DNA of 64,000 nt from Okamejei kenojei (Eukaryota): NCBI GenBank assembly GCA_035221665.1, contig CM069135.1, positions 75,082,001 through 75,146,000 of the forward strand, in the 5' to 3' direction. The notes beneath the pieces were generated by a model. That model was not told the origin of the DNA and ran no database searches. It worked only from the letters and a program-made list of their open reading frames with translations. The position numbers were made by a program, and so were the translations under genes. Positions 5,933 through 43,303 of the stretch are shown in pieces. Within the stretch, counting starts at the first letter, position 1, and each line of letters opens with the position of its first letter.

Positions 5933-6242
5933 TCTATCTATCTTCTATCCATCTACTATCTATTTATCCATCTTCCATCCATCTACTATCCATCTATCCA
6001 TCTTCTATCCATCTACTGTTTAGACATCCATCTTCTATCCATCTACTATCTAGCCATCTTCTATCCATCTACTATCTATCTATCCATTTCTATCCATCTA
6101 TTATCTATCTATCCATCTTCTATCCATCTTCTATCCATCTACTATCCATCTATCCATCTACTATCCGTCTATCCATCTTCTATCCATCTACTATCCATCA
6201 ATCCATCTTATATCCATCTATCTATCCATCCATCTATCCATC
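5933..6242. repeat. (TCTA/TCCA)n compound microsatellite
   Basis: Directly visible. A second block lies at 7254-7359. Confidence 0.95.
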
Positions 6243-7253
6243 TTAATATTGGCCAAAATACTGCTATTTTAAAATGGAGGATGTTTGCATCTGCAGGGCC
6301 TGCTAGGTCAATTGACATGTAAAGCTGCAAGCTTCGAGCTGGTGCCAGGAAGTCTACATCCCAGATGGAAATATCAGATAAGGTGAGGTCCAGATGTCCT
6401 CTCTATTGTTAAATTTTATGAGGACTTTGCAGAGAAACCCAGAGGTGTTGCAGATGCATTAGCAGGATTGGCTGTGCAGAAGGGTTGTAAATACTGTTTA
6501 TAATGTTGCAAGGTGTTTGTGTTACTGTTTGATGATTGGCTGAAGTATAAGCCTTGTTTGAATTGTTTATACTCCCCAGGAGAATGTTGCATTACCTGGG
6601 TCAACTGATTTATTTCCAGAAGCTTCTGTAGAAACATTGTAATGGGGTGCTTTGTAATTGGGTTGGGGAACTGTCAATAACACTTTAATCGATATGTGTG
6701 ATTGGATTTCAGGGGCCACCACCCCCATGTAGATCTGCCCCACATGGTTCAATGACCTATAAAAGGTAACCCCCACGAGGTTCGTTGTCGATCTTCTGGA
6801 GGAGCACTTGTGACTGTGAAACCTTTTGGAGGTGTCTACTTGCACAAGGCTGAAGGGCTTCGACAAGCAGAGATAAGGATCGATCCCTCGATGGTTAGGT
6901 ATTGTGTAGGGCAGTGGTTCTCAACCTTGTTTGCCCCATGCACCCCTTTCACCATATGTCAGAATGTCATTCCCCCACAGCAGCAGGTGACTGATGCATA
7001 CTGAATTTTGTGCCGCCCTGGGGAGCTCAAAGGCAATAAAAAGATCAACATTCTAACAGTTTGAGTTTGCTAATCTGTGGTCCCAATTCCCCCCCTGAAA
7101 ACCTGAAATCCCCCTCCCCCCAGGGGGAATTCCCCCCTGGTTGAGAACCCCTGGTGTAGGGAATTTGTTATTGTTTCATAAAATAAAGTTTTGTGGTTCA
7201 GTGCTTGAACTAGAACTAGACTAAGGGGGGTTAGCCCTAGGAGCATAATTACA
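6243..7253 (+). mobile_element. Solo-LTR-like sequence nested in the Helitron 5' microsatellite
   Basis: Several ATTGG boxes, TATAAAA at ~6758, AATAAA at ~7182, and an end of ...AATTACA. The 5' boundary is uncertain (TGTAAT at 6638, or a degenerate start near 6243). No clear TSD. Confidence 0.45.
6912..7153. mobile_element. hAT (Charlie-like) non-autonomous element/MITE, 242 bp
   Basis: TIRs CAGTGGTTCTCAACC / GGTTGAGAACCCCTG, with a perfect 8-bp TSD GTGTAGGG at 6904-6911 and 7154-7161. Confidence 0.9.
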
Positions 7254-7898
7254 TCTATCTATCCATCTATCCATCTATCCATCCATCTATCCACCTATCT
7301 ATACATCTATCTATACATATATCTTCTATATCTATCTATCTATCCATCTATCCATCTAATCTAAACATAAATAAAAGTCTGATCTTGTGCTCTTCTGGTT
7401 TGCGGGGTTTTTCTATTTGTGCAAAAACAGTACGTGATAGCACTACGATATGTTGCCAGGTTACGCACCGTTCTCCTGTGCTATGAGTGCAACAAGTTTC
7501 ATTCCGATCGGTGGTATATTGTAAAAGTTATTGAGGATTAAAACTCTTTAAAACCGCGCATGGGCAGATTACTTCAGTCAGCGCCACGCAGATTGGTCTC
7601 TTCTCCTGTTAGTCAATGCCATGGCCAGGGTGGCGACGCCCCTTCCTGCCCCACCGGCGGCGGCCTGTCCCGCCTCATTCACAAACTCCTCTCTCCCTTC
7701 CCCACAGTAATTTGTCTATCGTCTCCCCCACCATTGGTGGCGGCCGCGGTTCAGTGGAGGCCCAGTGGAGGCCCTGGTCCTGTCTCTCTCTCCCTCATCA
7801 CTCACCCCTCTCCCCTGCCCACCCTCTGCGGCAATGGCGGTCCCATCTACCCGTCCCCCCGGTCCGTCTCCTCTGCCGCCGCCGTTGCGGTAACTCAC

Positions 7899-7979
7899 CC
7901 TCATGGCCTTCTCGGAGGAGATCTGTTCCACCAACTCATTGAAACTCGTGGTGCCCACCGTGATGAACACTGGCTCCAT
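7899..7979 (-). pseudogene. alg13: Captured ALG13 first coding exon inside the Helitron
   Basis: 81 nt encoding MEPVFITVGTTSFNELVEQISSEKAMR, followed by gtgagt. This matches the ALG13 N-terminus (human MKCVFVTVGTTSFDDLI...). No further ALG13 exons were recognised. Confidence 0.85.
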
Positions 7980-8088
7980 CCCCCTCCCCCAGCGGCCCGG
8001 CGGCAGCAGCGAGCAGGCAGGCAGGCACGGGCCGAGCGGCGGCAGTGGGTGGTTGGACAGGACGGGGAGTGTGCAGAGTGGTCGAGCA

Positions 8089-8241
8089 NNNNNNNNNNNN
8101 NNNNNNNNNNNNNNNNNNNNNNNNNNNNNNNNNNNNNNNNNNNNNNNNNNNNNNNNNNNNNNNNNNNNNNNNNNNNNNNNNNNNNNNNNNNNNNNNNNNN
8201 NNNNNNNNNNNNNNNNNNNNNNNNNNNNNNNNNNNNNNNNN
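8089..8241. other. Assembly gap (153 N)
   Basis: Run of N. Confidence 1.
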
Positions 8242-9119
8242 CTAAACATGGTCCAATCTTCATCATCAGGATCTAAACCACAGCTAACAATGAATGACCT
8301 GTGGAGGAAGGAACTGCAGATGCTGCTTTTTAGGGAGGGAGGCACTGAGGGTAGGGGATAGGGAGGGATTGGGGAAGGAGAGGGGAAAGGTCCTGTGGAG
8401 GAGGAGGGTGGGGGATTGAGGAAGGGGTAGGGAGGGAGAGGGGCAAAAGTGGGGGAGGCGAGAAGATTGGGGTAGTAAGGGGAAAAGAGAGAGAGGAGTA
8501 GGGGAGGTAGTGAGTGGGGAATAGAGGGAGGAGGGCACTTGTCAGGAGGGATAGTGGGGGATAGGGGAGGTGAGGAGTTGGTGATAGGAGAGGGTACGGA
8601 GGGGAGAGGAGTTATTGAGGGAGGGAGGGAGTGACTGTGGTTAGAGGAAAGGAGAGGGAGGAATTGGGGAGGGGATGAGGAGAGGGGAAAGAAGGGATAG
8701 GGAGTACTGAGGGATGAGGGGAAATGAGCCGCGCCTGCACAGTTGGGGGCTATGTGTGAGTGGTGGAATATTGCGTTGGGGGGACGGGTTGCATTGGAGG
8801 AATGGGTGAGTGGTGCAATATCGCATTGGGGAACGGGTTGCGTTGGGGGACCAGGCCTCCCGTGTGACAGGGACCCAACGGGTCCCACTTAGTCTAGTGG
8901 ACTCTAAAATCTTTCCAACCACTGAAGTCAGGCAAGCCAGCCTCTCGTTTCCCCTCTTTTGCTTTGCTCCCTTCTTGAATAGCAGAGCAACACTTGCAAA
9001 CTGGGGAAGTTCTTCAACTGGGAAAATTCTATACCATTTCTTCAACCTGGTTGCATCTAGCAGTTCTCTGCAGGGCCTCTCGGAAACCTTGATCAATCAC
9101 TAACTAATATGGAACGCTA

Positions 9120-10530
9120 AAAGATGGAATAGCAGCACATTTGGAAAGTGGTGAAATCATTGGACAAATCATTTAATTTACAAGGTAAATCATGTCTGAC
9201 GAATCTTATAGAATCTTTCAAGAATGTAACTAGTAGAGTGGATAAGGAAGAACCAGTGGATGTGTTATATCTGGATTTTCAGAAGGCTTTCGACAAGGTC
9301 CCACATAAGAGATTAGTATGCAAACTAAAAGCACACAAGGTATTGGGGGTTCAGTATTGATGTGGATAGAGAACTGGCTGGCAGACAGGAAGCAAAGAGT
9401 AGGAGTAAACGGATCATTTTCAGAATGGCAGGCAGTGACTAGTGGGGTACCACAAAGCTCGGTGCTGGGACCCCAGCTATTTACAATATATATATATGAA
9501 TGATTTTGACGAGGGAATTGAATGCAACATCTCCAAGTTTGCAGATGACACAAAGCTGGGGGGCAGTGTTAGCTGTGAGGAGGATGCTAGGAGGCTGCAA
9601 GGTGACTTGGATAGGTTGGGTGAGTGGGCAAATGTTTGGCAGATGCAGTATAATGTGGATAAATGTGAGGTTATCCACTTTGGTGGCAAAAACAGGAAGT
9701 AGACTATTATTTGAATGGTGGCCGATTAGGAAAAGGGGAGATGCAACGAGACCTGGGTGTCATGGTACACCAGTCATTGAAAGTAGGCATGCAGGTGCAG
9801 CAGGCAGTGAAGGAAGCAAATGGTATGTTGGCATTCGTAGCAAAAGGATTTGAGTAGAGGAGCAGGGAGGTTCTACTGCAGTTGTACAGGGTCTTGGTGA
9901 GACCACACCTGGAGTATTGCATACAGTTTTGGTCTCCTAATCTGAGGAAAGACATTCTTGCCATAGAGGGGGTACAGAGAAGGTTCACCAGATTGATTCC
10001 TGGGATGTCAGGACTTTCATATGAAGAAAGACTGGATAGACTCGGCATGTACTCGCTAGAATTTAGAAGATTGAGGGGGGATCTTATAGAAACTTACAAA
10101 ATTCTTAAGGGGTTGGACAGGCTAGATGCAGGAAGATTGTTCCCGATGTTGGGGAAGTCCAGAACAAGGGGTCACAGTTTAAGGATAAGGGGGAAGTCTT
10201 GTAGGGCCGAGATGAGAAAAACATTTTTCACACAGAGAGTGGTGAATCTGTGGAATACGCTTTTTCGTTTTCCTCTGGGTATGCAAATACTCAGAAAAAT
10301 GATAATAAAGATATACAATACTCTGCCACAGAAGGTAGTTGAGGCCAGTTCATTGGCCTATATTTAAGAGGGAGTTAGATGTGGCCCTTGTGGCTAAGGG
10401 GATCGGGGGGTATGGAGAGAAGGCAGGTACAGGATACTGAGTTGGATGATCAGCCATGATCATATTGAATAGCGGTGCAGGTTCGAACGGCCTACTCCTG
10501 CACCTATTTTCCATGTTTTTATGTTTTTAT
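9120..10530 (+). mobile_element. CR1 LINE, 5'-truncated, with 3' UTR and (TATGTTT)n-like tail
   Basis: Motifs [23 protein letters not shown] and RPHLEYCIQFWSP, with frameshifts and stops. Confidence 0.92.
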
Positions 10531-10950
10531 ATGCGTTTCTCTGAACACCTCCGCTCAGTCCACCTAAAGTTACGCGATCTCCCGGTTGCTAAACATTTTA
10601 ACTCCCCCTCCCATTCCCACACTGACCTTTCAGTCATGGGCCTCCCCCATTGTTAGAGGAGGCCTAGAGCATATTGGAGAACAGCACCTCATTTATCGGT
10701 TAGGCTGCTTACAACTCTGCAGTATGAATATTGACTCCTCGAATGTCAAGTAACCTTTGCTTTTGCTCTCTCTCCATCGCAGTTCTATATGTCTGACTGA
10801 CCTTTTGATTAAATTTGTATCTTTGTATGCTGCGTTGTCAACTTCCCCAGCTCACAATGATCTATTCAACATTTTCCTTGAGCTTCGTCGGCTTTGATGC
10901 CTTGTTTTCACACCATCATTCTTTATCTCTGTGCCTCCCTCTCCCATGAC
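10531..10950 (+). mobile_element. Penelope-like element fragment
   Basis: RFSEHLRSV...LPVAKHFNSPSHSHTDLSVMGL resembles the C-terminal part of a GIY-YIG endonuclease. Confidence 0.7.
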
Positions 10951-11019
10951 TAAAGAAGTGCATTGTAATTTGTGAGTGATGTTATTTATCGGAAACATAT
11001 GAAGGATGAATTTTTCTTT

Positions 11020-11350
11020 TCAGGCAATCTCTCTGGATTGAGGATGACTTACCTTTTCGTCAGGTCGGAGGGAATTCCCACTGCCACGGGTACCATGTAA
11101 TCCCGTGCTACCTGCTCCATGGTCGGATAGTCGGTGACTAAACCGTCTCCCCCACCTGGTTTGCCAGGTGAGGAGGGGGCTGTGGATCCCCAGCAGGACC
11201 AGAAACAAGACCTGTCAAAGGGCTAGCGAGCCAACGAGCCAAAGGGCTAGCGAGCCAATGACCCTCCACACTTCAGTAGATCACTATCGTACATAGCATT
11301 GTAAGGCACCGTGCCCGTTGATGTTTTCAACAATGATGATGATGATGACA
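11020..11350 (+). mobile_element. Short RTE-like/SINE-like element with (GAT)n tail
   Basis: Ends in (GAT)n at ~11333-11348. The family call is from resemblance only. Confidence 0.4.
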
Positions 11351-11450
11351 TGTAATGATGATACCTAAAGGAAAAGGACAAGGTGGGCTGAAGGGCCTGT
11401 TTCCTGGATGTACAGCTCTATGACTCTCGATTACTATTTCAACTCTGAGA

Positions 11451-11640
11451 TTAGTTTAGAGATACAGCACGGAAACAAACCCTTCGCTCCACCGATCTTT
11501 GGAGTGTGGGAGGAAACCAGAGAACCCTGGGGTCACGCGGAAAACGTACAAACTCCCTACAGACAGCACCTGTAGTCAGGATTGAACCTGGGTCTCTGGT
11601 ACTGTAAGGCAGCAAGTCCAGCACTGCGCCACTGTTCTGC
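11451..11640 (-). mobile_element. tRNA-derived SINE (HE1-like), internally deleted
   Basis: A/B-box-like head (cagtggcgcagtg...ccaggttcaatcc) and a CR1-like tail ending (ctaaa)n. Homologous to the copies at 47.3 and 58.2 kb. Confidence 0.75.
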
Positions 11641-13199
11641 CCCAGAGATGATTGATGAGGCAAATGTGGGAACCACATTCTCCCTCACAGAGGGGGCAGA
11701 TCATGGCCTGTTTATGCAGGACTTCCATGTGCCCCATTTCGAAGCCTAGAGGTTCTCACTATCACAGATAAGACCATAGCTGGAGTACTATGTTCAGCCT
11801 ATAAAAGGATATTATTACATGGGAGAGGGTGCAGAAGAAATTCATCAGGATTTTCCCTTGGACTGAGCATGTCAGTTCTGTGGTATGATTGGACAGGATA
11901 GATTTGTTTTTCTTGAAGCATAGAAGGCTGATGGGTGTCATGATAGAGATAACCATATATATGATTAGGGGAAAAGGCAGGTTACACAGTAGGAAACTTA
12001 TCTGCATTGTAGAGCAAGGTAAAATAAAGGGCATGTGTTTGCTAAAGAGAAAGGGAATTAGTGAGAGTCTGACAAGGACTTTTCTTTTACACATTCAATA
12101 TGAATTCTGCTGCTTATAAGGGTCAGAGGGAAAAATTGTCACAAAACGAATGAAGTACCTAGCAAGTACTTGAATGATCAGGCTATAGAGGGCAACTGAC
12201 TAAATGCAAGTAACTAACAATTGTATAAATATGCATGTGATGGTCAGCATAAACGTAGTGAGCTGAAATGTTTATGTGTTGTATGACCTTATGATAAAAC
12301 AATCCCTAATGGTCCTTGAATGGTCATGGGTTAGAAATTTCCAAGGAGTCAGTGAGGATGTTCTTTTTTTTTCTGAGGAGGTTTTGAACACACCCTTAAA
12401 TCTTTTCTTCTATTCACCTGCTAATCTCTTCAGATGGCTGAACTCAAAACAGGGTGTTTACTTCAGGAATATGGCATGCGAACAGCAGGTCCTGCCAAAT
12501 GTAGTCAACTGCATGTGAACTAGGGCCCTTGCTTTGCTTGATGGCTTAATAACACTTATGTGCTGTTGGTATAATTTTAAGAAATTGGCTGGAATTTACT
12601 CAGTTAAGTTAATGTGGTGTAGATAATAAAAATAAACGTTGGAAGCATAATTATTAATTTGCTTATTATCAATTACATTTAGCACCACTTAATCAAAATA
12701 TTCTATTTGTTTTGAATAACAGCACATATTTTATATTGCCAATTTTGTTTTGGTTATTCCCTTCTTATAACTGATGCACTACAATGCTGAGAACTATATC
12801 CTACGCTATATCTTTCCCTTTGCTCTATCTATTGCACTTGAGTTTGCTTTGATTTATTCACATACAGTATAATATTATCTAATCTGTTTGGACAGCAAAC
12901 AAAATAAAGATTTTTGTCACTATTTCACAGTTCACATGACAATGGTAAACCTAAACCAAGGTGGAGTCACAGACACATTTTTGCACCTAAAATATAATTG
13001 CCTGAAGACCATGATAAATGTGAACTCCAGAAATGTTATTGCCTTTAAACCATAATTTATCATTTGATGAAGCTAGAAAGGTTATTTAAAAAGTCAATGA
13101 ATCAGATTACAAAGAGATGTTATAAAAATTGAATCCCTTAGTACCATTAGTAAGAAATGTTGGGGAAAAAAAAAACACAATGAGAGTCATACATACAAA

Positions 13200-15562
13200 T
13201 TAAGATTCTGAAGAGTTTTAATATCCTTAACATTGAAATCATGAAACAAATTTGACAAGGTACCATTAAGGAAAATGCCATTTTAAAGTTTAAGTTATCG
13301 GACTGTATTAAACAGGAGACTGTTCAAGTGATAATAATTCTAAGGATCTCAGTATAAGTGGGGCTGTTTGTTAATGATTTAGCTTGGAATGTCAAATGAT
13401 ACATTTTTAAAAACATAAGCACTTTATAATAATTATGACTAGAGTGAACATCACTGCTTCAAGTAATTTTCTTTGTGGATGAATATTGGCAATTTCCCCC
13501 ACCCCCCAAAATAGTGTTGACTAGTCACACCACAATTTCCCCATGGAGATGCACCAGACAATGGAAATAGATATCAGACAACAACTCCACCTGTGACAGT
13601 GATTACAGATTATGTTTCTCAGTTATTTATGGAATGATCCCAAAATTTGGGAATTTAACAATTACCATAGAACATAAATGGAACTGAAGATGGATCCATC
13701 TGTGGATAGGCTTTTCTCTAAAGTAATCTCAAATACATTATTAAAGGAGATATGGAACCTTTGCAAAAATAAATTAGTTACATGCACACTACTTGACAAA
13801 TTGTAACAACTTTCTGTGCCATGTGCATTCTGAGCAAGTATCAAACTTCAGTGCAAACGCCATTATAGCTAAAGTAATAAACAAAACTTGGATACATGAA
13901 GACCAAGTCAATTCTTGGAAACTGTAGTTTTAGAAACGCTTAAGTGAGATTATATTATGTGATATTTAAAAAAAAGAACCAAATAAAATGTATTGGTGAT
14001 TGTGGATATTTGTGATGCTATATTGGCGAATACCTTTATTACTTGATGACTAAATATTAGTCCAGCACTAAGCACATTGCCTACAAGTTTCTCATACTAC
14101 TGATAACTTCATCTCAAAAGTACTGTTACCACTATCACTGCAATGATTAAATTGTTCTTAATTTTCTTTCACACAATCAAGTTACTATTGCTTAGCACAA
14201 AATAGCAATCATTCTTACATTTCTCATATAAACCACAGTATCCTCACTGGATACAAATGCATTCATGTTACACAGTTAAGACAATAAAATTAGCCATGCC
14301 ATATTTGAACAAATATTCTAAGAAAATTACACCAGATTGTCAAATAGGCTCCTTGGGAATGCATCAGTATAGGCCCTCTCCACAGCAATTCCCCACTCCC
14401 CTCCCCTCCCCTGACCTCCCACCCACAGAGTATTTAACTTTTGCCATCCTGCTTTAAATTAAGAATGTATGAACCAAATAATTAATGGTTTGATGATCAG
14501 AATATAAAACTGCAGTGATAATAAGTAGAATATTAATTGTACAAACATTTTGTCTTTTAAAATTATCCCAATTGGTTTCCTTGTGTTCATTGCACTTGAA
14601 ATTATTCATTATTCTGCGAAGCAGTGTTTTGTTTATAAGTTTGATAAGAAGTAATGAGCATGGTATTGGTGGAACAATTTAACAAAACAAGGTCAAATAC
14701 CAAACATTCATTAGTCAAGAAATATGTTCAAATACATCTAAACTGATTTTCTGGTTAAATAATTTCAAGTGCAGAGGGAGGCATCTGATACACATGAACA
14801 AATCATCAATGTTTGTAATGTAGAAACAAAGAACTGCAGATTCTGGTTAATAGATAAAAGGATATAACGGTGTGGTGTAACTCGGCAATGGAGAATATGG
14901 ATAGGTGACAGTTCTTCTGACAGCAGATACACCAGTAGCCAGATCTGAAGAAGGGTCCCAACCTGAAACGTCACCTATCCATGTTCGCCAGAGCTGCTGC
15001 CTGAACTGCTGAGTTACTCCATCACTTTGTGTCCATCTATATTCATAAACTCTGCAATGTATTCTTTTCTTTTCAAATTATTTTGATGCCCAGGATAGAA
15101 TTATTTTGTGTTTTATTGTTGCTGCTAAAGAGTTATTTCAATCAGAATGAAGAAAAACTTCATAGTGCAGGATCACGTCTTGTAATATTATTACTTGGCT
15201 TAAATCAATTGGTACAAGGTCAAATTCTTTGAAGGAATAAGAAGGAATACTTTGGCAATGTGCAGGAGTATGACAAGAATTGCAAAACATCAGTTAATTT
15301 TCATAATTGTAATAATTTCTTATATATTTTTTCAGCTGGCCTTTTGTTAAATGAGTTTACTGGAGTGAATATCATCAGAAGTATAATTTTTGTTGTGTCT
15401 TAGCGTGGTCCTATTTAAAAAGGTAATACCACCGAACTGTTAGTTGGTAATGAGTATAACTCAAAACTACTAAGTACCAACATCTGGGAAGTATTTCCAG
15501 ACAAATAATGTATCTACTCGAGACTGTAGAAATGAGGCAGTGTCTTAAATGAACCGACTGGG
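13200..15562 (-). other. Putative gja1 3' UTR with poly(A) signals
   Basis: AT-rich, mostly unique sequence after the stop codon. AATAAA (minus) at 14035-14040; ATTAAA at ~13217 followed by a U/GU-rich tract (~13165-13178). The end is inferred. Confidence 0.45.
14822..15040. mobile_element. Inverted pair of Penelope terminal fragments
   Basis: gaactgcagat...ataggtgac followed by ctgaagaagggtcccaacctgaaacgtcacctat. The same unit recurs at ~1060-1190, 22045-22105, 37834-38055, 43350-43545 and 44075-44185. Confidence 0.65.
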
Positions 15563-16711
15563 TTAGACCTCAAGGTCATCTGGTCGAGGCCTGCTGCTTC
15601 CTCTACTGCTGGCTCTACTGGGAGGCCTCTGTTCCGTGAGACCAATTGGTTCCAGTTCTGTAACAGATGATAGCTTTTGCATGGTTGGATGTTCACCACG
15701 GAAATCAAACGCCTGTGCATGGCAGTTGGAAATGGTGCTACCAGCCTGACCGATCCGGTTTTGTTCTGTGCTATAATTTGCCCAGTTTTGTTCATTAGCT
15801 TGCTTATTGTAGCTTCGGCAAGAGGACATATTCCTGTCCCCGGTAGCAAGCTTGTATCCAGGAGGGGACATGGGTGCAGTTGGCGCGGAACACCCATTGA
15901 AATAGGCGTACTTCAATGCAGAGGCGTCTTTTAGAGTATTCAAGCCCATTTTTTGAGAGTCTTGAAATAAATTTCTATTCTTTTTGACATGGTCAGCTGT
16001 ACTTTTGAAGCCGATGTAGAACAGCTCTGCCACATTTAACATAGCTGACACAACGGATACCACCAGCATGAATATAACAAAGATGGTCTTCTCTGTGGGT
16101 CGTGACAGGAAGCAGTCTACTTTGTGTGGGCATGGATACCTCTCGCAGGTGTAAATAGCATTCAGTATGAATTTGAAATCATAAATGCACCATTGAGTTA
16201 ATATAAAAGCCACTTCGAAAATTATTTTAAAGATTATACTGACAGAATAAGTGCGCAAGAGGGATCCTTTAATTTTAATTCTGCCCTCCTCCTCCAGACC
16301 ATACTTAATTTTCTTTAGTTCTAATTGTTTCAAGTGCAGACCCACATCTTCACCACGTTCTTGGAGTGTCTTCAAATATGATTCCTTCTTAGATATTTTC
16401 TTCTCTTTGTGAGAGATACGAAAGACGTGGGCGAGGTAGACCAAAGTCGGTGTGGAGACAAAAATAAACTGAAGGACCCAGAATCGAAGGTGGGATATAG
16501 GAAAGGACTTGTCGTAGCAGACATTACCACAACCTGGTTGCAATGTGTTGCATGTGAACGCAGATTGTTCATCATTCCAGGCTGATTCCACCGCAGTGCC
16601 CAGCACCAAGAGACGGAAAATGAAGAGCACAGTGAGCCACACTTTACCTCCCGGAGTCAAATGTGACTGTACTTTATCCAATAGCTTTCCAAGGGCACTC
16701 CAGTCACCCAT
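15563..16711 (-). CDS. gja1: Gap junction alpha-1 (connexin 43)-type protein, 382 aa, single coding exon
   Basis: ORF begins [15 protein letters not shown]. It has the connexin Cys motifs ([14 protein letters not shown]; [12 protein letters not shown]), a PPGY motif, RASSR repeats and the C-terminal PDZ motif RPRPDDLEV typical of Cx43. A splice acceptor tttttacag| lies 16 nt upstream of the ATG (exon starts at 16727). Confidence 0.95.
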
Positions 16712-17679
16712 CTTGCTTTAGCTTTGGCTGTAAAAATAAGAGAACGACTGTGTCAATAGATTGTGAAGTTGCCAGATATGTTGGTTCATTTTAAAATATA
16801 GCTTAATTTGAATTTACATACTTTCTTTAATCATGATTTGACTGGTATGTATATTTTCAGCTCAACAGTGGAGTCAAAACCATTAAGCATTAATAACATT
16901 TCATGTATGTAGCCATTTAAAATGTGGTAGTGTAAAAAAGTTATGAGTAATTATTTGAAAGCAAACAAACCAATCATTTAAAGTGCCAGTCCTTTTAAAA
17001 TCAAAGTTTATCCATTCCGACAATTTAAAAATCTGAAGATAATTTGTTCTTTCAATGTATCTACTCAATTTGCTCTGAAATGATATGTAATTATATTTTA
17101 GTAAGCACTCATAAATATAATAAATATTTACAACAACCTAAAGTCATCTTTTACATAGCAACACATCCCATAATAATTCATGTGGGCATTAAAAGCAAAT
17201 GACACATCCATATAACGGTCTGATAATCAGGTGATATAGATATAGGGTTCTTTTTAAAACATCAAAGGAAAAAATAGTGGGTAGGAGGAGAGCTTTGGAA
17301 ACAAATTCCTGGGTTTTGGGCTTTGGCTGTTGAAGACAAGGCCAATTAAGGTGGAACACCAAAATCCAGGGATGAGCAACAGGCCAGAACTGAAATGGAC
17401 AAGTTGGGCCGAAGGGCCTGTTTAAAAGTTGTATGACTCTATGACTTCAGTGAAATTACAAAGAGAAAAGTAATGCCATGGATAAACTAAATGTTAAAAG
17501 ACAGCACCTTAACCAGGAGCAAGCAGTCAGGTGATGGGTGAACTATATTTGAGGTGACAGGGGTTTTGATGCTTGAACATAAAAAAATAAAACAGTGCAG
17601 GTACAGGAACACATCCTTCAACCCACCAATTATGATGCCAATTTTAAACTAATCCTATCTACGACATATCCCTCTATAT

Positions 17680-18890
17680 CCCTGCCATGAGGGAAAAACG
17701 TTTTCACCCAGAGAATTGTGAATCTGTGGAATGTTCTGCCACAGAACGCAGTAGAGGCCAATTCGCTGGATGTTTTCAAGAGAGAATTAGATTTAGCTCT
17801 TAGTGCCAATGGAATCAAGGGTTATGGGGAGATAGCAGGAACGGAGTACTGATTTTGGATGATCAGCCATGATCATATCGAATGGCGGTGCTGACTCGAA
17901 GGGCCGAATGGCCTACACTTGCACCTATTTTCTATGTCTGTGTGCCTGTCTAAATATTTCTTAAATGTTGCTATTATATCTGCTTCTGCCAGTTACTCTG
18001 ACAGTATGTTTTTGTCACCTCTAACCCTACAGTCACCCTTCCTCAGATCTCTCTCTCTGACTGATTGGTTGAGTTTTTCCAATATTTTTATTTTTATATC
18101 AGTTTCCAACACCTGCAGTTTTGTTTGTTTTCTGCATTCTATAGGTAGCAATGCCAGTAAAAGTTTAGGGTGCCAATAATTGGGATTATTTGTCTTTGAC
18201 ATAAAATGATGAGCCTTGCTGGAGCTGCGTTCTTCCTAGCATGTGGAGAATATTCCAATAACTCAAACACTTCCTCGAGGAACTCCTGCAGTTTAAGGAT
18301 GTCATTAAGTTGGAAAGGGGGCAGAAGAGGTTCACCATGGATGCTATCCAACCTTGTGAGCTTGAGATACAGGGAGAGTTTAGATAGGCTAGGATTTATT
18401 TATTTGGAGCATAGGCTGAGGGGTGATTTTATTGAGTTGTACGGAATCATGAGGAACATGGATAAAGTGAAAGTTCAGTCTTTTTGTCAGGGTAGAGGAT
18501 TTGAAAACTAGAGGAGATGGGATCCATGGCAGATGGCCCCGCTCCCTGCCATGGATGCCCTCCAACGAAAACGGTGTCTGAGACGGGCCGGGAAGATGAT
18601 CAAAGACCCCTCCCACCCTAACCATGGACTGTTTGCCCTCCTACCATAGGGGAGGCGGTACAGGAGCCTCAGGTCCCACACTAGTAGGATGAGGAACAGC
18701 TTCTATAACAACACCATCACACTGCTGAACTCGGAGTCCCGCCGATAGATTTCTCCAGTCTCTCCGTCCACATTGTCTGCATTCTGTATCTACTTATATA
18801 TTGCAATTACTACGAACTGATGCTAAACTGCATTTCGTTGTACCCATACTTGTATCTGTGCAATGACATTAAAGTTGAATTGAATTGAAT
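17680..18890 (+). mobile_element. Cluster of CR1 3' fragments and a Rex1-like 3' end in gja1 intron 1
   Basis: CR1 3' UTR at 17690-17940 and a CR1 fragment at 18250-18510. Rex1-like end at 18540-18890 with a (TTGAA)n tail. Confidence 0.65.
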
Positions 18891-21667: not shown

Positions 21668-21785
21668 CACCAACGTCTCGGGAGAAGCTCTCAACGATGC
21701 TTGAAGTTGATTAGATCAGACCGAACCACAAAATATTGGAATCCTTGAGCTTTGGTCCACTTCTATGAGAATGAGGATCTTTACT
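21668..21785 (-). other. gja1: Probable non-coding exon 1 (5' UTR) of gja1
   Basis: Strong donor GTG|gtaagtg (intron starts at 21667) just downstream of a TATA-like/AP-1/CRE cluster. This fits the two-exon connexin architecture with a ~4.9 kb intron. The TSS position is estimated. Confidence 0.7.
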
Positions 21786-21812
21786 CCAGCCCGAGCGGTG
21801 AGTGCCGGTCGA

Positions 21813-28800: not shown

Positions 28801-28949
28801 CCTATTAGGGTAATAGAAGAGAGGTGATTATAGAAACAAATGAGAAATTAGATGCTCAGAGTCTCTTGCCCAGGATAGGGGAATCGAGGATCAGAGGACA
28901 TAGGTTCAAACTGAGGGGAAAAAGATTTAATAGGAATCCTAAGTGTAAC

Positions 28950-30003
28950 TAGAATTAGCCAGAAAAAGCAACCTACCAGAGGACTGGGAGAAATTCAGAG
29001 TCCAGCAGAGGGCAAAGGGCTTAATTAGGAAAGGGAAAATAGATTATGAAAGAAAACTGGCAGGGAACATAAAAACTGACTGCAAAAGATTTTGTAGATA
29101 TGTGAAGAGAAAAAGATTAGTTAAAACAAATGTAGGTCCCTTGCAGTCAGAAACAGGTGAATTGATCATGGGGAACAAGGACATGGCAGATCAATTGAAT
29201 AATTACTTTGGTTCTGTCTTCACTAAGGAAGACATAAATAATCTGCCGGAAATAGCAGGGGACCGAGGGCCAAATAAGATGGAAGAACTGAGTGAAATCC
29301 AGGTTAGCCGGGAAGTGGTATTGGGTAAATTGAATGGATTAAAGGCCGATAAATCCCTAGGGCCAGATAGGCTGCATCCCAGAGTGCTCAAGGAAGTAGC
29401 CACAGAAATAGTGGATGCATTAGTGATAATTTTTCAAAACTCTTTGGATTCTGGAGTAGTTCCTGAGGATTGGAGGGTAGCTAATGTAACCCCACTTTTT
29501 AAAAAAGGAGGGAGAGAGAAAACGGGGAATTACAGACCAGTTAGTCTAGCATCGGTAGTGTGGAAACTGCTAGAGTCAGTTATTAAAGATGGGATAGCAG
29601 CACATTTGGAAAGTGGTGAAATCATTGGACAAATTCAGCATGGATTTACGAAAGGTAAATCATGTCTGACGAATCTTATAGAATTTTTCAAGGATGTAAC
29701 TAGTAGAGTGGATAAGGGAGAACCAGTGGATGTGTTATATCTGGACTTCGACAAGGTCCCACATAAGAGATTAGTATACAAACTTAAAGCAACGGTATTG
29801 GGGGTTCAGTATTGATGTGGATAGAGAACTGGCTGGCAGACAGGAAGCAAAGGGTAGGAGTAAACGGGTCCTTTTCAGAATGGCAGGCAGTGACTAGTGG
29901 GGTACCGCAAGGCTCAGTGCTGGGACCCCAGCTATTTACAATATATATTAATGATTTGGACGAGGGAATTGAATGCAACATCTCCAAGTTTTCTATGTTT
30001 CTA
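28950..30003 (+). mobile_element. CR1 LINE with an internal deletion, nested in another CR1 3' end (28815-30260)
   Basis: ORF 29102-29815 includes GPDRLHPRVLKE, WRVANVTPLFKKG and GNYRPVSL. The sequence jumps from mid-RT directly to the ttctatgt tail. TGTAAC occurs at both flanks. Confidence 0.88.
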
Positions 30004-32777: not shown

Positions 32778-34364
32778 CTAGGCTAAGTGGGACCTGTTGG
32801 GTCCCTGTCACAGGGGAGGCCTGGTCTCCCAATGCAACCCATTCCCCCAGGCAATATTCCACCACTCACCCATTCCCCCTAACGCAACCCGTTCCCCCAA
32901 CGCAATATTCCACCACTCACGCCTATCCCTCTTCCATCGAATCCACCCCTCCCTCTCACCCTCTCCCTCTACACCCCCCTCTATCCTACCTTGCCCATCA
33001 CCCCGGACCCCTTCTACCACCCTCTCTACCATCCTGCACTCCACCACCCCTCTACCCCACTCCCTCCCTCTCTTCCCCCCTCCCTCCTCCCTGTCTCTCC
33101 CCCTCCCTCCCTCATCTCCCTCTCCCTCTCTCCCCTTCATCCCTCTCCCTCCATCCCTCTCTCCCTCCGCATCCCTCTCTCCCCCCTTATCCCACTCTCC
33201 CCTCTCCCTCCCCCCTCCCTCCGTCTCCTCTTCTCCCTCCCCACCATGCTGTGGGCCGGGCTGCGGCGCTCCCTCTCTCCGTGTAACACTGTGGTGTGTT
33301 AGGGCCACCCCGGTGTCCACGCCCATGGGCAGGAGCCGCTGGAGCGCGGGACCCGCGGTGTCCTTCGCCAGCGGGTAGACAGCGGGGCTCAGTGCTAACC
33401 CCCCTATATCCCTCTACTACCCCATCTCCCTCCTCCCCATTTCCCACATCCTCCTCCCCTCACTCCCATTCCCTGCCCCAGCACCTACCCAGGTCGTAGA
33501 GCAGCGCCGGGGCCTGGAACTAGGCCTGGTTCTCATACTCAGCCCGGCCCTGGCAGTAGGCGGCCGAAGCACCCGTGGACGTGGGCCTCGACAGAGCTGG
33601 GCTCGCTGTGCTGGGGGCGGGGTGAGGGTGGCGGGCGGTGAGCCAGAGCTGCCTGCTGAGGAGGATGCGGAGGTTGTGCTGCAGAAAGGCGGCGGCCGGG
33701 CGGCCCCCGAGGCGCTGGTACATCTTGACCCAGGCCCTGGGCTTGGGCCCGACTCCAGCCCTCAGCTCGGCCACCACCTGGGCTCCAGTCCAGGCCCCGA
33801 CTTCATCTCCAGGCCCGTCCCTGACTCCGCACCTAGGCTCGTCCTTGGTTCCAGCCCAGGCCCAGTCCCCGGGCTCGGCCCGCAGCACCACCCTCCCCAC
33901 CAGGTACAGGGCGGCCACAGCTCCTTCATCATGGGGGCGAGGCTGCTGCTTGGGGCGGGGGTGTTGCTTGTGGCGGGCTGCTTGGGGTGGGACGGGGGGG
34001 GGGGGGGCTGGGCGGCGCTGGGCTGCGCTGCTATGCGTCCCTCTGAAATTCCTGTTGGAAACCTCTGCCGTGATGGCGCAGGAAGGGGTAGACCGTCCCG
34101 AGGAGTGACAGGGAAAGCGACTAATCTGTGCGGCGCTGACTGTCAGGAGAGATCGGTCTGCGCATGCGCGATTTTTAAGATTTTTAAACCTCGCCAACTT
34201 TTACGACATTCAACCAATTGGAATGAAACTTGGCGCACTCGCAGCACAGGAGAACGGTGAGTGAACTGGCGAAAAATCGTTGCGCTATAGCAAACCGTTT
34301 TTGCGCAAATAGATGGACAACCTAACCAGAAGATAACAAGATCAGAGTTTTAGTTATGTATAGA
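32778..34364 (-). mobile_element. Non-autonomous Helitron, same family, carrying different GC-rich cargo
   Basis: On the minus strand: 5' A|TCTATACATAACTAAAACTCTGATCTTG, and a 3' hairpin GGGACCCAACAGGTCCC followed by ACTTAGC CTAG|T. The terminal segments are homologous to 7360-7600 and 8750-8897. Confidence 0.88.
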
Positions 34365-35805: not shown

Positions 35806-36684
35806 TTATCCTGCATTTTCTTTAATTTCCTCACTACCTTTCTCAATCCCATAATTAATGGTATTCTGAGACTTGGGATCCTGGCTATTGCATGGTTCTG
35901 TACTAAAAGGCTTCACTTTAGAACCTGATAGAGGTAAATCTTCAGTCAGCTTTGATTTATCAAAAGACTCAATAAATTGGGGATGGCCATGTTTTTGATA
36001 TTTCTGCGTTGAAATAGTTATTTGCTTGAAAACAAGGTAAACTATTTCAGCTATATTTAGAAGAAGTGACACACAAGCAACAGCCAGCATGAAAATGATG
36101 AAGATGGTTTTCTCTGTTGGACGTGAGATAAAACAATCTACGGTATGTGGACAGGGATATCTACTGCACACATACATGGGATCCAAAGAAAAGCCATAGA
36201 GATACCATTGACCCACAATGAAACCAATTTCAAGCAGAATTTTACACAAAACATGTAATATGTAGGTAAATAATAGGATTCCTTGTATTTTTACTTTTCC
36301 ATCCCTTACTATGTACTTTGATGTCTTCTTAACTTTTCTGAAGTTTTGTTCTTCAATTAATTTGTGTTGTCTTCTCTCCAAGTGGACAACATGTAAAGCA
36401 TGTCCAAGGTACAGCAAGGTAGGTGTTGAAACAAAAATGATCTGAAGAACCCAAAAGCGAATGTGAGAAATTGGAAAAGCTTTGTCATAGCAGACGTTTT
36501 CACAACCAGGTTGGCGTGTGTTGCAAAGGAAGCCAGACTGTTCATCACCCCAAACCTTCTCTGCAGCAGATCCAAGCAATAAGATCCTGAAGATAAATAA
36601 TACGGTGAGCCAGATTTTCCCAATCACTGTAGATTGTGCCTGGACTTTGTCCAGCAGTCTTCCAAGTAGAGTCCAATCCCCCAT
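35806..36684 (-). CDS. Second alpha-connexin, Cx32.2/Cx32.3-like, 292 aa, single coding exon
   Basis: [33 protein letters not shown] has both extracellular Cys motifs ([14 protein letters not shown]; [12 protein letters not shown]), a short cytoplasmic loop and a short tail. Acceptor ttggcag| lies 14 nt upstream of the ATG. The subtype is inferred from length and from linkage to gja1. Confidence 0.92.
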
Positions 36685-39080
36685 TCTTCAAAGTATACCT
36701 GCCAAATTAAACACATGCACAACTAAATGTACCTGCATTACAAACTGGATGTTAATCTTGTACTTTTTCATATAAGACTTTGGGATGGATATTTGCGAGA
36801 GCTGCCAGCCCTCACCTGTTATAACATCAACAAGGAAGCCATGGAAGCTCTGGAAAAATGCTCTAAATGATGAATGAAGATAGACCATGTGGAAATTCAG
36901 CCCCTGGAATATTTTCAACGTCTTTGAACTCTTTTTATTTTACGTTTTAGGTGCAGCATTTCACATATGTCAAAAATAATTTTACTGAATCAAACTTAAT
37001 GGATTGCTAAATTAGCAAATTTTAGAGATGGGGACAGGGAAACGGGACAAGTTAAAACATTTACATGAACCGACCGCGGTGGCTTTTTTGAGCCACAATT
37101 AATTACAAATTGAGAATAAGAATTTCAAATATAGGTCAAATTAAAGGTCAAGGATGCTGCGGTTTCCTTTTTCTATTCTTCAAATACTGGAATACTCTGC
37201 ACAACCCTGTAGGAGATTCTACATTTTTGTAAAACAGCAGCAAAGTAAGAAGGCAACTCAAAGGTAATTAGGGCAATTAGGTAGGGGTGAGTAATAAAGA
37301 TAGGTCTTCATAGCAATTGCCACATTCCATAAAATAATAAAATTACTGGTAACTGAGGTGCTGTACCTTGCTTATGAATGAGTATGACTATTCCACTATA
37401 CAAGGTATTCGCCTCAAGGTATGCAGCCTGCAGATGGGGACATTACAATAGGGCAGTTACCTAGTTTATGCAAGTCCTCCCTAAGTGTTTGCACACATTC
37501 ATACATAAGAACAGACCTGGATCGTCCTGGTCCATTGATCACTGCAATCAGTTATTAACAAAATGTATTCTTGTGATATTCTGTCATTAATGTGGGAAGA
37601 AGTTTCCTCTGTCAGAGATTATGTTTATTTTTATGGCACAGTAAGCACAAAATACAATTGATCCATCTATAATTTCACCAAACATTATAAACCAAAGCAT
37701 TGGTCTCAGATTTGGCTTAAAGGTTCTAGAAAGGACATACAACCTGACACTTGCCCAGAGAGAAAATCTATAATTTCATCAAAAGTTGCATCGTATCCAC
37801 AACTGGTCAAAAGGTTTTTCATAATTGTATTTTTAAGAAGGAACTGCAGACGGTGGAAAAATCAAAGGTGGGTAAAAATGCTGGAGAAACTCAGCAGGTG
37901 AGGCAGCATCTATGGAGCGAAGGAATTGGAGACGTTTCGGGTTGAGACCCTTCTTCAATCTGAAGAAGGGTCTCGGCCCAAAACGGCACCTATTCCTTTG
38001 CTGCATAGATGCTGCCTCACCAGCTGACTTTCTCCAGCATTTTTATCTACCTTCATAATTGTATTTGATCTGTTTACAAGAAACAAGGGAAAATGTTTGA
38101 ATATCGAACAACCAAATGAAAGCCAAAGGGCTTAATGTGAAATAATGTCAATTCACTCGAGTTGTTTTTATAAATGTTAAAATTAAATATGGCAGCCTGA
38201 TATCCCTGTAGCTCCTTCAATGAAAATTGTTTTTTTTAAGATTGAATAATCATCTAACTGTAAAATGCTTTGAAAATGTGTCAAGTGTAGCAGCTAGAGT
38301 GAAACAATAGACAATCAAACACAATAATATACTGCACAGACGATAAAGCATACAAAATCCTCCCAGGGTTCAACTAGTCAGATGGTGACAGTGAAGACCA
38401 TAACACAATAATGGCAAAGTCTAACTGATATTTAATCATTAAGGAAGTAAAAGATTTGTAAAAATGATCTGAAGTAAAGTAGGAACACCCATTGATCCAC
38501 CTGACATTGTGAACAGCTGTATCATTGATTAAAAAAACACACAGGGAAATGACAATGGTCTGACTTTGCTCAATAAATTGAAGGCAAATTGTTAGAAAAG
38601 TAGAAGAGCTAGCAATCTTGTCATTCTACCACAAGTATTAAGTAGTGATAGACTGCTCCTTTGCAGCCAAGCTACTTTCAAATTATGCCAGAAATCAGAT
38701 ACAGTCTAAACCTTCCAAACCTTCCAAAACTGACTGAATTTAGTGGCTAATACAGCTGCTCCATTTGGGTTTGGTCCCATCTCATGTGGAATAGACAACT
38801 TCTCTCACCATAGACAAAGAAGTACATAATTTAAGCTCGAGAAGAATTACATCATGTCTTACAAATACAATTATGCAAGTGCCAACTTCACAGTAGTGAG
38901 AACTACCCAAACCTGCATTCTTGACTCTATGTTATGAAATGGATAAAGAGGCACTAAAGAAGCTAGAGAAAAGATTTAAACATATTCAGAAATGAGAGTC
39001 ATGGGTATCAGAGATGAAGCAATTAAACTCGATAGAGTTTACAAGAATGAGGGGGTCCTCATTGAAACATACAGAATAGT

Positions 39081-39270: not shown

Positions 39271-41039
39271 CATACAGAATAGTGAAAGGCTTGGATAGAG
39301 TGGATGTGGGGAGGATGTTTCCACTCATGGGAGACTATGGACTAGAGGTCATGGTCTCAGAATTAAAGGAAGGAGATGAGGAGAAATTTATTTAGTCAGA
39401 GGATCGTGAACTGCGGAATTCTTTGCCACAGAAGGCTGTTGAGGCCAAGTCAGTGGATATTTTTAAGGGATAGCTAGATAGATTCTTAATTAGTACAGGT
39501 GTCAGTTATAGGGAGAAGGCAGGAGAATGGGGTTAGACGGGAGAAATAGATCAGCCATGACTGAATGGCGGAATAGACCTGTTTGGCCGAATGGCCTAAT
39601 TCTATTCCTATTCTTTATGACCTTATAGCCTTATAATTACAAAATGCAGGATGCACAGAAAAAAAAATGGAATTCAGAGAGCTCAGAGAGTTGCAGGGCC
39701 TACCAATATTACAGAGATATTAATGGGGGATTGAGGACTGGAGTCTTGGTGAAGTAGGGAAGGGAAAGGGATAACAGAGAGAGAGAGAGAAAGAGAAAGA
39801 GAGAGAGAGAGACTAAATAGGGAGTTACATGGAAGACAAGGGATGGTATAGAATATAAAGTGGAGGAGGGGTAAATGAGATGATTTGGAGTAAGAGGGCT
39901 TGAGGTGGGTGGTGGGAGGAGATCACCCTATCTAGCGTCCTGACAAGAATTTATAAATTGTCTAGATTTGTAGGTCTATTGGTTTGGTATAGTGAGTCAA
40001 CTTAAGTTCTGGGCCTGAGACCTAGTCTAGCCCTTGTCCCTGATTCCTATTTGCTGGCCTTTAGTCCCAGGCCCAGTCCAGTCCTTTGACTGGAGTCTGA
40101 GTTATTGGACCTGTCCAAGACCAACTTCAGGGTTGCTAGTTGTGCCAGGAATCCTCTCAGTCCCCCTCCGCAATGGGAAGAATGTAAATGCAGCCCAATG
40201 TCCAACAAAAAGCTACCATGCACTCTATATAATTTTAACATTTTATTTTTCTTCAAGTTTCCAATTTCACCCTTCAATAGTTCGAAACACTCAGAGGGAA
40301 GACACATCAATTATGTCCATGTTTCCCCAAATTGTAGTAGAAATGCCATTGCAGTTGCTTCTGCTCCCTCTTGTCTGTCGCCGGACACATGCTCTTGAAA
40401 GATTACATTCTCTTCTTTTATCAACCAAACAGTACCAACTTCAAGGTTCCTTTGTTTGTTTTACTTCAATGATTAGTTATTCTGGTAATACAATGGGTGA
40501 TGTGTTGTGTTAACACTGATACTCTTCAGTTTGCAGTGATTTGTACTCAGTCTTGGAATTCTTGGGTTGAAGAATGGGTTGAAGCTAAGGTGCATTCTGA
40601 GAAGGTGGCACAAGACTTGCACACATGTGATCTCCTTTCAATTGTTGCTCCTTCTGTTGTTTCAAAGAGAGACAGCATTCTTACCGTCCAGTAGGTTATT
40701 CTGTAAGCCTTATAACAGCAGCTTTATTTAAAGTGTTTTCAAAGTGTGTGATCCAGGCTCATTTGCTGCTAAATGATGTCTGTCCAGTGCTTCTAGCAAT
40801 TAGCAGTACAATATGGCACTATGCTTACATGCTATACGTTTCACATTATTTAATCTAGATCATTCATCAACAATATGAAGCATTTGGGCCAAATATGACC
40901 CAACAGATCATTCCTGAAATCTCATTGTGATGTACTCATGCTAATTCTGGACACACGGAGGAACCTTGCTGGATTAACACGAGTAGTGTGATTACACTTG
41001 GAATTACCTCCATATGTCCTGACCAGAATTTGCAACCAT

Positions 41040-41611
41040 GATATCTCTCTTTTTCTCTCTCCATCTCCCTCCCTCTTCCCCCCCAACCAACCAACCAACA
41101 GCCATTTGCTGTACATCACTTCAAACCAACCACCACCAACAGCCATTTGCTGTGCTTCACTTCAAACCAACCACCACCAACAGCCATTTGCTGTGCATCA
41201 CTTCAAACCAACCACATTTTCATTTTCAGACCACATTAAGGGCACTCAAGGTCAGTAAAACCACACTCACAGTTTAGTAGACATGTGTTCAGTTTATTCA
41301 CAGCTCAGACTGAGAGACATGACCCTCTCGCTCCCCCATCTTGCAGAGACTGCCTGAGGCACTCAACACCTCTGGGTTTTATAGTCCCTTCGGAAGGGGC
41401 GTGGCCTTCAGGAGCGAGAATCTCAAAAAATTTTAAACACTAATAACCCTTTTATTTTTCATCGATGGGGATAATCCACTTGTCCTGCACAGCGGAGGGG
41501 GACTGAGTACGATGGCCAAAACTCACAGTCGTAAGTTGCAGCGTTTGTTCTAAAATCAATATACAGAACAACAGAAAGTGGTGAAGATCAGACTTTTAGT
41601 AATATAGAAGA
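41040..41611 (-). mobile_element. 3'-truncated Helitron of the related subfamily
   Basis: 5' terminus TCTATATTACTAAAAGTCTGATCTT at 41608, homologous to 42720-43020, with an internal ~41-bp tandem repeat (41095-41215). No hairpin or CTAG end found. Confidence 0.65.
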
Positions 41612-42137
41612 TATATATACATATACAAACACACATATAAGTCTGTTTTGTTACAGAGTTGCTATAGCACGGAATAGAGTGCAAGGAGTGAAGCTTGTAA
41701 TGTAGCTTGAAATTTAAAAAGAGTTGTTTGGGAAAACCTATTAATTTGCAGGTGCCATGCTTGAGATTAGATGGCGTTTGTAATCTGTCTGTTAAATGGG
41801 GCGTCAGCTTTCTAGCATTTAAGGCAAGTTGTCAAGTTATATATTACTTATAGATTTGTGTAAGGCTAGCAGGTTAGAGTATATATTTTTTCAATTTCTT
41901 GTAAAACAATGTTTGATAAAGTATGTAATTCTCCGCGTATCCTGCTGATATTGATAACTGTAGATGTTCAAATAAATCATCCCAATCATTAGCTAGATAA
42001 CAAAATCTATATATTTGGAGGTTGAGATTCAGTATTAATAATGGCAGGAGAAACAACATAAGATATGGACTGAATAGACTTATTAGGACAAACACTATAG
42101 TTCAATGGATTTATTGTTTTATCTAAATAGTATCTAA

Positions 42138-43303
42138 CTAGACTAAGTGGGACCTGTTGGGTCCCATGTTCACACGGGAGGGCTGGTCCCCCGACGCAAT
42201 ATTCCACCTCTCCACCAATTCCAATATTGGTGGCCAGTGGGGGGGCTTTCTGGAGCGCTGGTATGCGTTCTTGGGGTGGCAGCTCAGTCCCTCAAGCCTG
42301 ATGTGCTGGCAGCTCACTCACGGCTGGTGGGCTGGCTGTTGACTCATGGCTATTCCTTGAAATTCTCTTTCAAGCAGGGTGCAAGGCCACCAAATTCAAA
42401 TCCATTTTCCTACCATTTCTGGCAGGGTGGAAGGCCACCAAATTCATGTGCAGTTTCTTACCATTTCAAGCAGGGTGCAAGGCCACCAAATTCAAATGCA
42501 GTTTCCTACCACTTCAAGCAGGGTGCAAGGCCACCAAATTCAAGTGCAGTTTCATACCACTTCAAGCAGGGTGCAAGGCCAAAGAATTCAAGTGCAGCTT
42601 CATACCATTTCATGCAGGGTGCAAGGCCGCCACATTCAAATGCAGTTTCATACCATTTCAAACAGGGTGAAACCACCATAAAACCACCATAAGACCACAC
42701 AAAACACCAAACTCGCAGTTCAGTAGACATTCAGTTTGTTCAGTTTATTCACAGCTCAGACAGCCGTGACCTCTCCCTCCCCCAGCATGCAGAGACTGAA
42801 CCACACGCACACTTCCGGGTTTTATAACCCCTCCCCCTCCCACCGGAAAAGGTTCGGCCTTCATGACAGGAGAGAGATACTCAACATTTTTTAAACACTA
42901 ATAACACTTTTATTTTTCATTGATGGGAAGAATCCACTGCACCTGCTGAGTGGAGGGAGACTGAGTAAGATGGCCAAAAATCACAGCCATAAGTAATAGT
43001 GTTTTATCTAAAATCAATATACAATTTCACTTCAAGCCAAAGCTCCCAAGCCACCATTTGCAGTAGTGCCTTTTCACTTCAAGCCAAAGCACCCAAGGCA
43101 CCATTTGCAGTAGTGCATTTTATTATTAACATTAATATCTCTCTTATTTTTCATCGATGGGAAAAATCCTCTGGTCCAGGAAGGCAGAGGGGGGCTCTGT
43201 GCGAACTGGCCAAAAGTTATGGCCGTAGATGGTAGCGTTCTCTCGGAAATCATGGCACAGCGAGCCAAAAGCGGTCAAGATCAGATTTTTAGTAATATAT
43301 AGA
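42138..43303 (-). mobile_element. Non-autonomous Helitron with an internal 48-bp tandem array
   Basis: On the minus strand: 5' A|TCTATATATTACTAAAAATCTGATCTTG, with the same 3' hairpin and CTAG|T. A 5'-subterminal-like segment is repeated internally (~42890-43020). Confidence 0.85.
42369..42668. repeat. 48-bp minisatellite, about 6 copies
   Basis: Unit approximately ttcaagcagggtgcaaggccaccaaattcaaatgcagtttcctaccac. It appears as a 16-aa periodicity in the ORF track. Confidence 0.9.

Follow-up and report, generated by a model that had tools for sequence, protein, structure and literature searches.

We analysed a window of 64,000 nt from the genome of the skate Okamejei kenojei (assembly GCA_035221665.1, contig CM069135.1, positions 75,082,001–75,146,000, forward strand; window positions are counted from its first letter). 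Four repeat copies in this window almost certainly belong to a very abundant skate family of non-autonomous Helitron1-type elements, within which one clade bears DNA derived from host gene 5′ ends. An earlier note on this DNA had described the four copies as Helitrons with constant termini and interchangeable cargo. All four are borne out, at the following positions.

7360–8897, plus strand: copy A, a complete non-autonomous Helitron of the cargo-bearing (AB) clade, ALG13 subfamily
8870–8897, plus strand: 3′ hairpin and CTAG terminus of copy A
32778–34364, minus strand: copy B, a complete non-autonomous Helitron of the AB clade, mosaic SAC3D1 subfamily
42138–43303, minus strand: copy C, a complete non-autonomous Helitron of the majority (CD) clade, with a 47-bp repeat (43025–43121), a 5′-end-like segment (42703–43023) and a 48-bp minisatellite (42368–42669)
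41040–41611, minus strand: copy D, a 3′-truncated Helitron of the CD clade, with a 41-bp minisatellite (41083–41215)

Termini and target sites

The three complete copies each lie between an A and a T. Copy A begins TCTAAACAT and ends TAGTCTAG, copy B begins TCTATACAT and ends TAGCCTAG, and copy C begins TCTATATAT and ends TAGTCTAG. The earlier note had placed all four copies at such A–T sites; this holds for A, B and C and is checkable in three copies rather than four, because copy D lacks a 3′ end and its beginning can be placed either at 41611, following an A, or 3 nt further in at the consensus start, following a T. TCTGATCTT occurs four times in the window, once in each copy, and the hairpin–CTAG 3′ end common to the complete copies occurs three times. 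The hairpin stem is 7 bp long in copy A and 6–7 bp in B and C, and it ends 11 nt before the terminus; in the predicted fold the hairpin forms in B and C, and in A the hairpin arm pairs with an upstream G run. No terminal inverted repeat (TIR) was found in the first and last 60 nt of copies A, B and C (best local match, 5–6 of 60 nt). None of the 74 open reading frames (ORFs) of at least 100 aa in the window, judged by eye, encodes RepHel, as had been noted before. The termini proved less constant than first described: the 5′ ends of A–D and the 3′ ends of A–C are related, but they fall into two clades, and between A/B and C/D the common sequence is limited to the outermost ~28 nt (5′) and ~60 nt (3′). 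In pairwise alignments, A and B share ~250 nt at the 5′ end and ~150 nt at the 3′ end, and C and D share ~180–320 nt of 5′ sequence.

Across the 2.76-Gb genome, the 3′ 28-mer has 2,877 exact matches and the AB-type 5′ 28-mer has 535, with control counts of 0 in both cases, which bears out the proposed abundance of the family. At loci found by their interior, exact termini were present in 6 of 63 3′ ends and 8 of 64 AB 5′ ends; scaled totals would come, by a rough and crude estimate, to ~10,000–30,000 3′ ends and ~4,000 AB elements. Three exact 3′ ends per 64 kb have a probability of about 5 × 10⁻⁵ for one window, but we rejected local copy density as a signal, as ~2 such windows are expected by chance among 43,000.

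We sampled the first 86 listed 3′ ends, which all lie on contig C1. The nucleotide after CTAG is T in 84 of these copies, and A precedes the 5′ end in 36 of the 41 copies with a full 5′ start and in 27 of 30 in a separate set. A flanking repeat of at least 4 nt was seen in one of the 41, within low-complexity DNA, and all 41 full-start 5′ ends begin with TC, partly by construction as they were found by profile. A 5′-type end lies upstream of 65 of the 86 3′ ends, 55 of them CD-type and 10 AB-type, and the median length of the 55 two-ended elements is 1,388 nt. The flanks of 58 elements were joined and searched against 1.09 Mb of DNA, and 15 gave a junction-spanning match. Five of the 58 (L017, L076, L133, L169 and L185) have gap-free paralogous empty sites at A–T in host repeats, and one further gap-free site is at G–T (L184). 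The TC...hairpin–CTAG ends, the A–T target and these six precise empty sites support the rolling-circle identity proposed earlier. Target-site duplications (TSDs), TIRs and a lack of A–T preference, which the earlier note had named as contrary signs, were looked for genome-wide or in the window copies; given the A–T preference, the flanks without TSD and the precise empty sites, no such sign was therefore found. Head-to-tail tandem copies, in which CTAG is directly followed by a new 5′ end, occur in L043 (4184–5833), L091, L111 and L174, as expected of rolling-circle products or of insertion at the end of another copy.

Gene 5′ ends in copies A and B

Capture of gene fragments, claimed in the earlier note, is upheld by two parent loci, ALG13 and SAC3D1, that lie outside any Helitron. 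The cargo of copies A and B is laid out as follows.

7620–7807, plus strand: GC-rich module preceding the ALG13 piece, with weak similarity to intron 1 of the ALG13 parent
7808–8329, minus strand: captured ALG13 fragment in antisense orientation relative to the element, made up of upstream and 5′ untranslated region (UTR) DNA, exon 1 and the first part of intron 1; some of it reads N
7899–7979, minus strand: coding part of ALG13 exon 1, 27 codons followed by a GTGAGT donor, 89% to the parent exon
33236–33400, minus strand: further GC-rich module, which follows the SAC3D1 piece and is absent from the SAC3D1 locus
33429–33905, minus strand: captured SAC3D1 exon and start of the next intron, internally deleted and frameshifted, sense to the element, with its GT donor at 33488–33487
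33941–34125, minus strand: 5′ part of the M1 cassette within copy B, aligning to L199 at 71% across 199 columns

The exon in copy A had been assigned to ALG13. By itself it matches PF04101 at positions 2–23 with an E value of 0.036, below the cut-off, and its identity is confirmed by the parent locus at C13:63.82 Mb, where the cargo is collinear with G000:C13:63,825,488–63,825,983. At the parent, PF04101 positions 2–22, 32–81 and 80–120 lie across three collinear exons, the third of which matches a solved ALG13 structure. The family majority matches the 496-nt parent stretch at 83% over 512 columns, and its exon at 95%. The captured stretch spans the 27-codon exon together with ~100 nt of intron 1 on one side and ~320 nt of upstream DNA on the other; a (CA)n tract and the margin of another repeat lie in this upstream DNA. 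Searches with this cargo gave 795 first-look candidates, and all of the 40 that were scored matched. Among 19 other ALG13-bearing loci, 17 have the family 5′ end and 16 the 3′ end; no Helitron end was found within 40 kb around the parent.

The piece in copy B that had been called GC-rich and exon-like is a SAC3D1 exon, and its parent lies at G000:C28:31.55 Mb. The parent matches PF03399 and has a solved SAC3D1 as its best structure match (E = 3e-10); a PDB search with the decayed frame of the window copy gave nothing useful. The copy B piece matches the parent at 81% over 314 nt; for the subfamily majority the match is 86% over 346 nt and extends past the GT donor into the intron. This majority holds two more exon pieces upstream with deletions between them, and a less deleted form is kept in L195. 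We take the captured exon to be probably exon 1, because of where the profile starts. There were 1,592 candidates for the copy B cargo, of which 40 were scored; in 19 other SAC3D1 loci the family 5′ end is present in 17 and the 3′ end in 16, some of them partial, and no Helitron end was found at the parent within ~6.6 kb. Both captured parent stretches are 66–74% GC with a CpG observed/expected ratio of 0.76–0.78, a composition that makes them appear CpG-island-like.

Copy B reads as a mosaic, in the order M1 5′ part, SAC3D1 piece and then the module that is absent from the SAC3D1 locus. No parent of that last module was found among 25 fetched loci, 24 of which have the family 3′ end. M1 is the commonest cassette, with 2,953 candidates, and looks like a 5′ UTR or exon that ends in GTGAGT. 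A DNA search for its parent yielded Helitron copies only, all 25 of the fetched loci having the 5′ end, and its 95-codon frame had no match in a protein search, Pfam or Atlas. L228, a 90% match, was considered as the M1 parent and rejected as a local duplicate. L198 and L228 (G000:C1:11.80 and 11.72 Mb) contain one Helitron copy with its flank in duplicate, at a distance of 75 kb, and L228 shows many small indels; this duplication is possibly an assembly artefact.

Capture, amplification and RepHel partners

Capture took place at the DNA level, because the cargos include intron and upstream DNA and occur in both orientations. By analogy with Helraiser, as described in part of PMC4778049, RepHel supplied in trans would nick the 5′ TC end and peel off one strand, which would end at the hairpin–CTAG and be joined into an A–T site. 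For the capture itself we lean towards the copying of open, CpG-island promoter chromatin into a broken or replicating element, by gap repair or template switch, because the cargos are enclosed by intact ends of the family and the parents retain no Helitron end. Read-through between two neighbouring Helitrons is the less probable route, to which we nevertheless give substantial weight: the absence of Helitron ends spans 40 kb at ALG13 but only ~6.6 kb at SAC3D1, and ends can decay.

Each gene piece was probably captured a single time and afterwards amplified by transposition, and later deletions and recombination between subfamilies would have produced mosaics such as copy B. An alternative, close to the free form of interchangeable cargo in the earlier note, is that every copy is an independent shuffling product. 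The four window copies have three different interiors, and module mosaics exist, but we consider this unlikely because the interiors fall into a few amplified subfamilies. Among 30 AB copies picked by their 5′ end, 19 carry M1, three are of the ALG13 type, one carries SAC3D1, two carry other modules and five are truncated. The ALG13 and SAC3D1 exons were found in none of the 86 copies picked by their 3′ end, whereas the middle part of copy C matches 57 of them and its 48-bp minisatellite 39. An internal copy of the 5′-end-like segment is present in copy C and in many CD copies, and no host gene cargo was seen in the interiors of copies C and D. Reading the differing interiors as cargo thus stands for ALG13 and SAC3D1 in copies A and B, but the minisatellites and duplicated 5′ ends of C and D are the standard body of the majority clade and not host captures. 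Judged from these comparisons, the family comprises a majority CD clade and a minority AB clade (10 of 65 typed 5′ ends) that carries host DNA; gene cargo is limited to the latter, with few capture events, each amplified and later recombined. Across the copies compared, each cargo defines its own multi-copy subfamily with a fixed internal layout. Divergence from the subfamily majority is 7.8% for ALG13 (n = 20), 9.2% for SAC3D1 (n = 20) and 12.1% for M1 (n = 23).

We find it very improbable that the gene pieces are retrocopies or complementary DNA fragments put into Helitrons by the machinery of long interspersed nuclear elements (LINEs). Remains of CR1-like LINEs are plentiful in the window, and retroposition into Helitrons is reported for bats in the part of PMC4224331 cited here. 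However, both cargos cross an exon–intron donor into the intron, and ALG13 adds ~320 nt of upstream DNA with the (CA)n tract and part of the neighbouring repeat; neither a poly-A tract nor an exon–exon junction was seen in the cargos.

Remains of a RepHel transposase are present in the genome. PF14214 (Rep) matches at 101 places, with 127 candidates scored, and we fetched ~19 kb around 10 of the 12 best matches. In an element of 8.7 kb at C5:45,038,688–45,047,382, both family ends, a D-type 5′ end and a hairpin–CTAG end, enclose a disrupted coding region for Rep and PIF1 (PF14214 and PF05970). Eight of the ten loci have at least one family end rightly placed and oriented, two of them on short matches only; all are decayed, and one has an AB-type 3′ end. 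The autonomous element with the same ends, for which the earlier note had suggested a search, was thus found in decayed form. The family therefore had RepHel partners, although it appears dead in this genome and is likely extinct.

It is most improbable that the family instead belongs to Helentron/Helitron2 (DINE-1-like) elements or is a set of miniature inverted-repeat transposable element (MITE)-like repeats with sub-terminal inverted repeats: in many copies a microsatellite is adjacent to the 5′ end, and the interior is filled with minisatellites, but the ends are 5′ TC and 3′ CTAG with a hairpin 11 nt from the end, the target is A–T, the first and last 60 nt hold no TIR, and neither the Pfam matches of the cis RepHel fragments nor the domain lists for their closest relatives contain an endonuclease family. 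DINE-1/HINE elements have similar microsatellite and minisatellite features. Helitron2/Helentron elements have sub-terminal inverted repeats, T-rich ends and an endonuclease in the transposase, features that the skate family does not display.

Several points weigh against our account of a Helitron1-type family that captured gene 5′ ends. The 5′ profiles were built from the same sample that was scored, and 21 of the 86 3′ ends had no 5′ end inside the 1.5–5.7 kb fetched. Of the 58 joined flanks, 43, the window's three included, gave no junction-spanning match, and nine of the 15 junction matches are gapped, low-complexity or self-tandem. No intact RepHel was found among the 127 candidates scored, the longest open frame being 452 aa. 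The bias towards gene 5′ ends rests on two genes; these are the only cargo parents located, and M1 and three smaller modules, which have no located parent, could be non-genic.

The nearest named relatives of the RepHel proteins are from the skates Rhinoraja and Leucoraja, the only named vertebrates among the best 120 of 1,110 RepHel matches; no shark is named there. Next in this set come Physella acuta and three unnamed proteins, followed by a drop to ~50%. The Physella acuta RepHel is 69–71% identical over the Rep region and, over its full length, 60% identical to that of Rhinoraja, and a tree of 30 selected rows grouped skate, Physella and one unnamed protein at 98/95. The skate RepHel (L043:9002–10000, proteins P0001–P0007) stands well apart from matches other than Physella acuta and the unnamed proteins. 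Horizontal transfer of the lineage that groups the skate RepHel with that of this snail would be plausible from these protein comparisons, and we consider the case for it evenly balanced.

Spread, neighbouring features and related systems

Contigs of four other organisms contain the family termini at very high summed depth. Single-copy flank contigs from these organisms, with flank differences of about 2–4%, extend 18–28 nt into copy B at both ends, except for one that falls short on the 3′ side; this overlap is below the 31-nt bridging threshold. The earlier note had suggested looking for empty sites in related species; for copy B, none was seen in the four organisms among the joints listed. 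These observations hint that the insertion of copy B predates the split from those organisms.

A microsatellite adjoins the 5′ end of copy A.

7253–7359, plus strand: (ATCT/ATCC)n microsatellite, with a second block at 5933–6244

Such tracts are present at 18 of 113 AB 5′ ends (one perhaps a slicing artefact) and at 0 of 59 AB 3′ ends, compared with 0.18% of random 40-mers. One-sided 5′ flanks of this kind are seen at window 7253–7359, L115 and L264. The tract likely grows from the A–TCTA junction, the element seeding microsatellites rather than preferring them as targets, because it is one-sided, at 5′ ends only; such growth would therefore explain the satellite at the start (5933) of the interval described in the earlier note. 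The 1 kb that separates the two ATCT blocks holds a MITE-like element at 6912–7153 whose 15-nt TIRs agree at 14 of 15 positions and whose target duplication, GTGTAGGG, is 8 bp long; we take this element to be hAT-like.

Copies C and D are bracketed by a 395-bp direct duplicate (40593–40987 and 44294–44681, 95% identity) that starts ~50 nt beyond the broken 3′ side of copy D, with no further occurrence in the DNA compared; it could be a local duplication or a read-through product. Self-comparison revealed palindromic MITE-like repeats at 37865–38053, 43387–43544 and 47110–47447. The window also holds two intact connexin ORFs in tandem, gja1/Cx43 at 15563–16717 and a second at 35806–36687, both on the minus strand; the second resembles the fish cx32.2/GJA2 group. 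Copy B lies between the two connexin genes in the same orientation, ~16 kb upstream of the gja1 coding region.

Among the closest known systems is the Helibat of Myotis, in which, according to the part of PMC4224331 cited here, promoter, 5′ UTR, the first exon and part of intron 1 were captured and amplified to thousands of copies. HelibatN3/Helibat elements, as covered in parts of PMC4224331 and PMC4778049, share with the skate family the TC...hairpin...CTAG ends, a hairpin 11 nt from the end, the A–T target, gene 5′-end capture, high copy number and, usually, a parent with no related Helitron (none nearby in 26 cases, ends beside the parent in three). They differ in that the bats offer 54 catalogued genes and tested promoter activity, whereas the skate offers two identified parents, in a cartilaginous fish host with other terminal sequences and other genes (ALG13 and SAC3D1). 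Heli1Xen1 of Xenopus laevis is likewise similar in its canonical Helitron1 ends, its captures mostly from gene 5′ ends (17 of 19) and its proposed horizontal origin, in the portion of PMC12001565 considered. Its captures sit in 64 insertions and the family may be active, whereas the skate cargos are in far more copies, are 8–12% diverged and contain intron and upstream sequence, a point against the route by reverse transcription that the same portion discusses for Heli1Xen1. As with transferred families of the Heligloria type (PMC2997563, main text in part), our RepHel search suggests a patchy distribution across distant animals; that study required >80% DNA identity over ends and interior, compared with ~60% protein identity between skate and snail, and the words skate, shark and snail are absent from that text. 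No report of skate Helitrons was found by title or abstract in the literature searched, although Repbase and Dfam may already hold such families. Gene 5′-end capture is thus known already from bats and frogs, and the skate case is new by that literature.

We can entertain, as a speculation that we regard as doubtful, that a Helitron lineage shared with a freshwater snail reached the ancestor of skates by horizontal transfer, picked up CpG-island gene starts and made promoter–exon–donor mosaics spread by the thousands, a part of which now act as alternative first exons specific to skates. If so, copy B would point such a cassette towards the gja1 connexin gene. In a comparison of L262 with four possible RNA runs, marked as guesses or probably DNA, one loose end that was traced led to an unrelated GA-rich stretch and not to a spliced exon.

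Skates would be the third vertebrate lineage, after vesper bats and Xenopus, with Helitrons that amplify gene 5′ ends. With ALG13 and SAC3D1 exons present in hundreds of copies and donor-bearing cassettes in thousands, the annotation of genes and the mapping of reads can be confounded in skates. Old copies remain alignable in the slowly evolving genomes of skates, and the family is present in several related species; the preference for 5′ ends and the route of capture are therefore testable by comparison of parent loci across skates.

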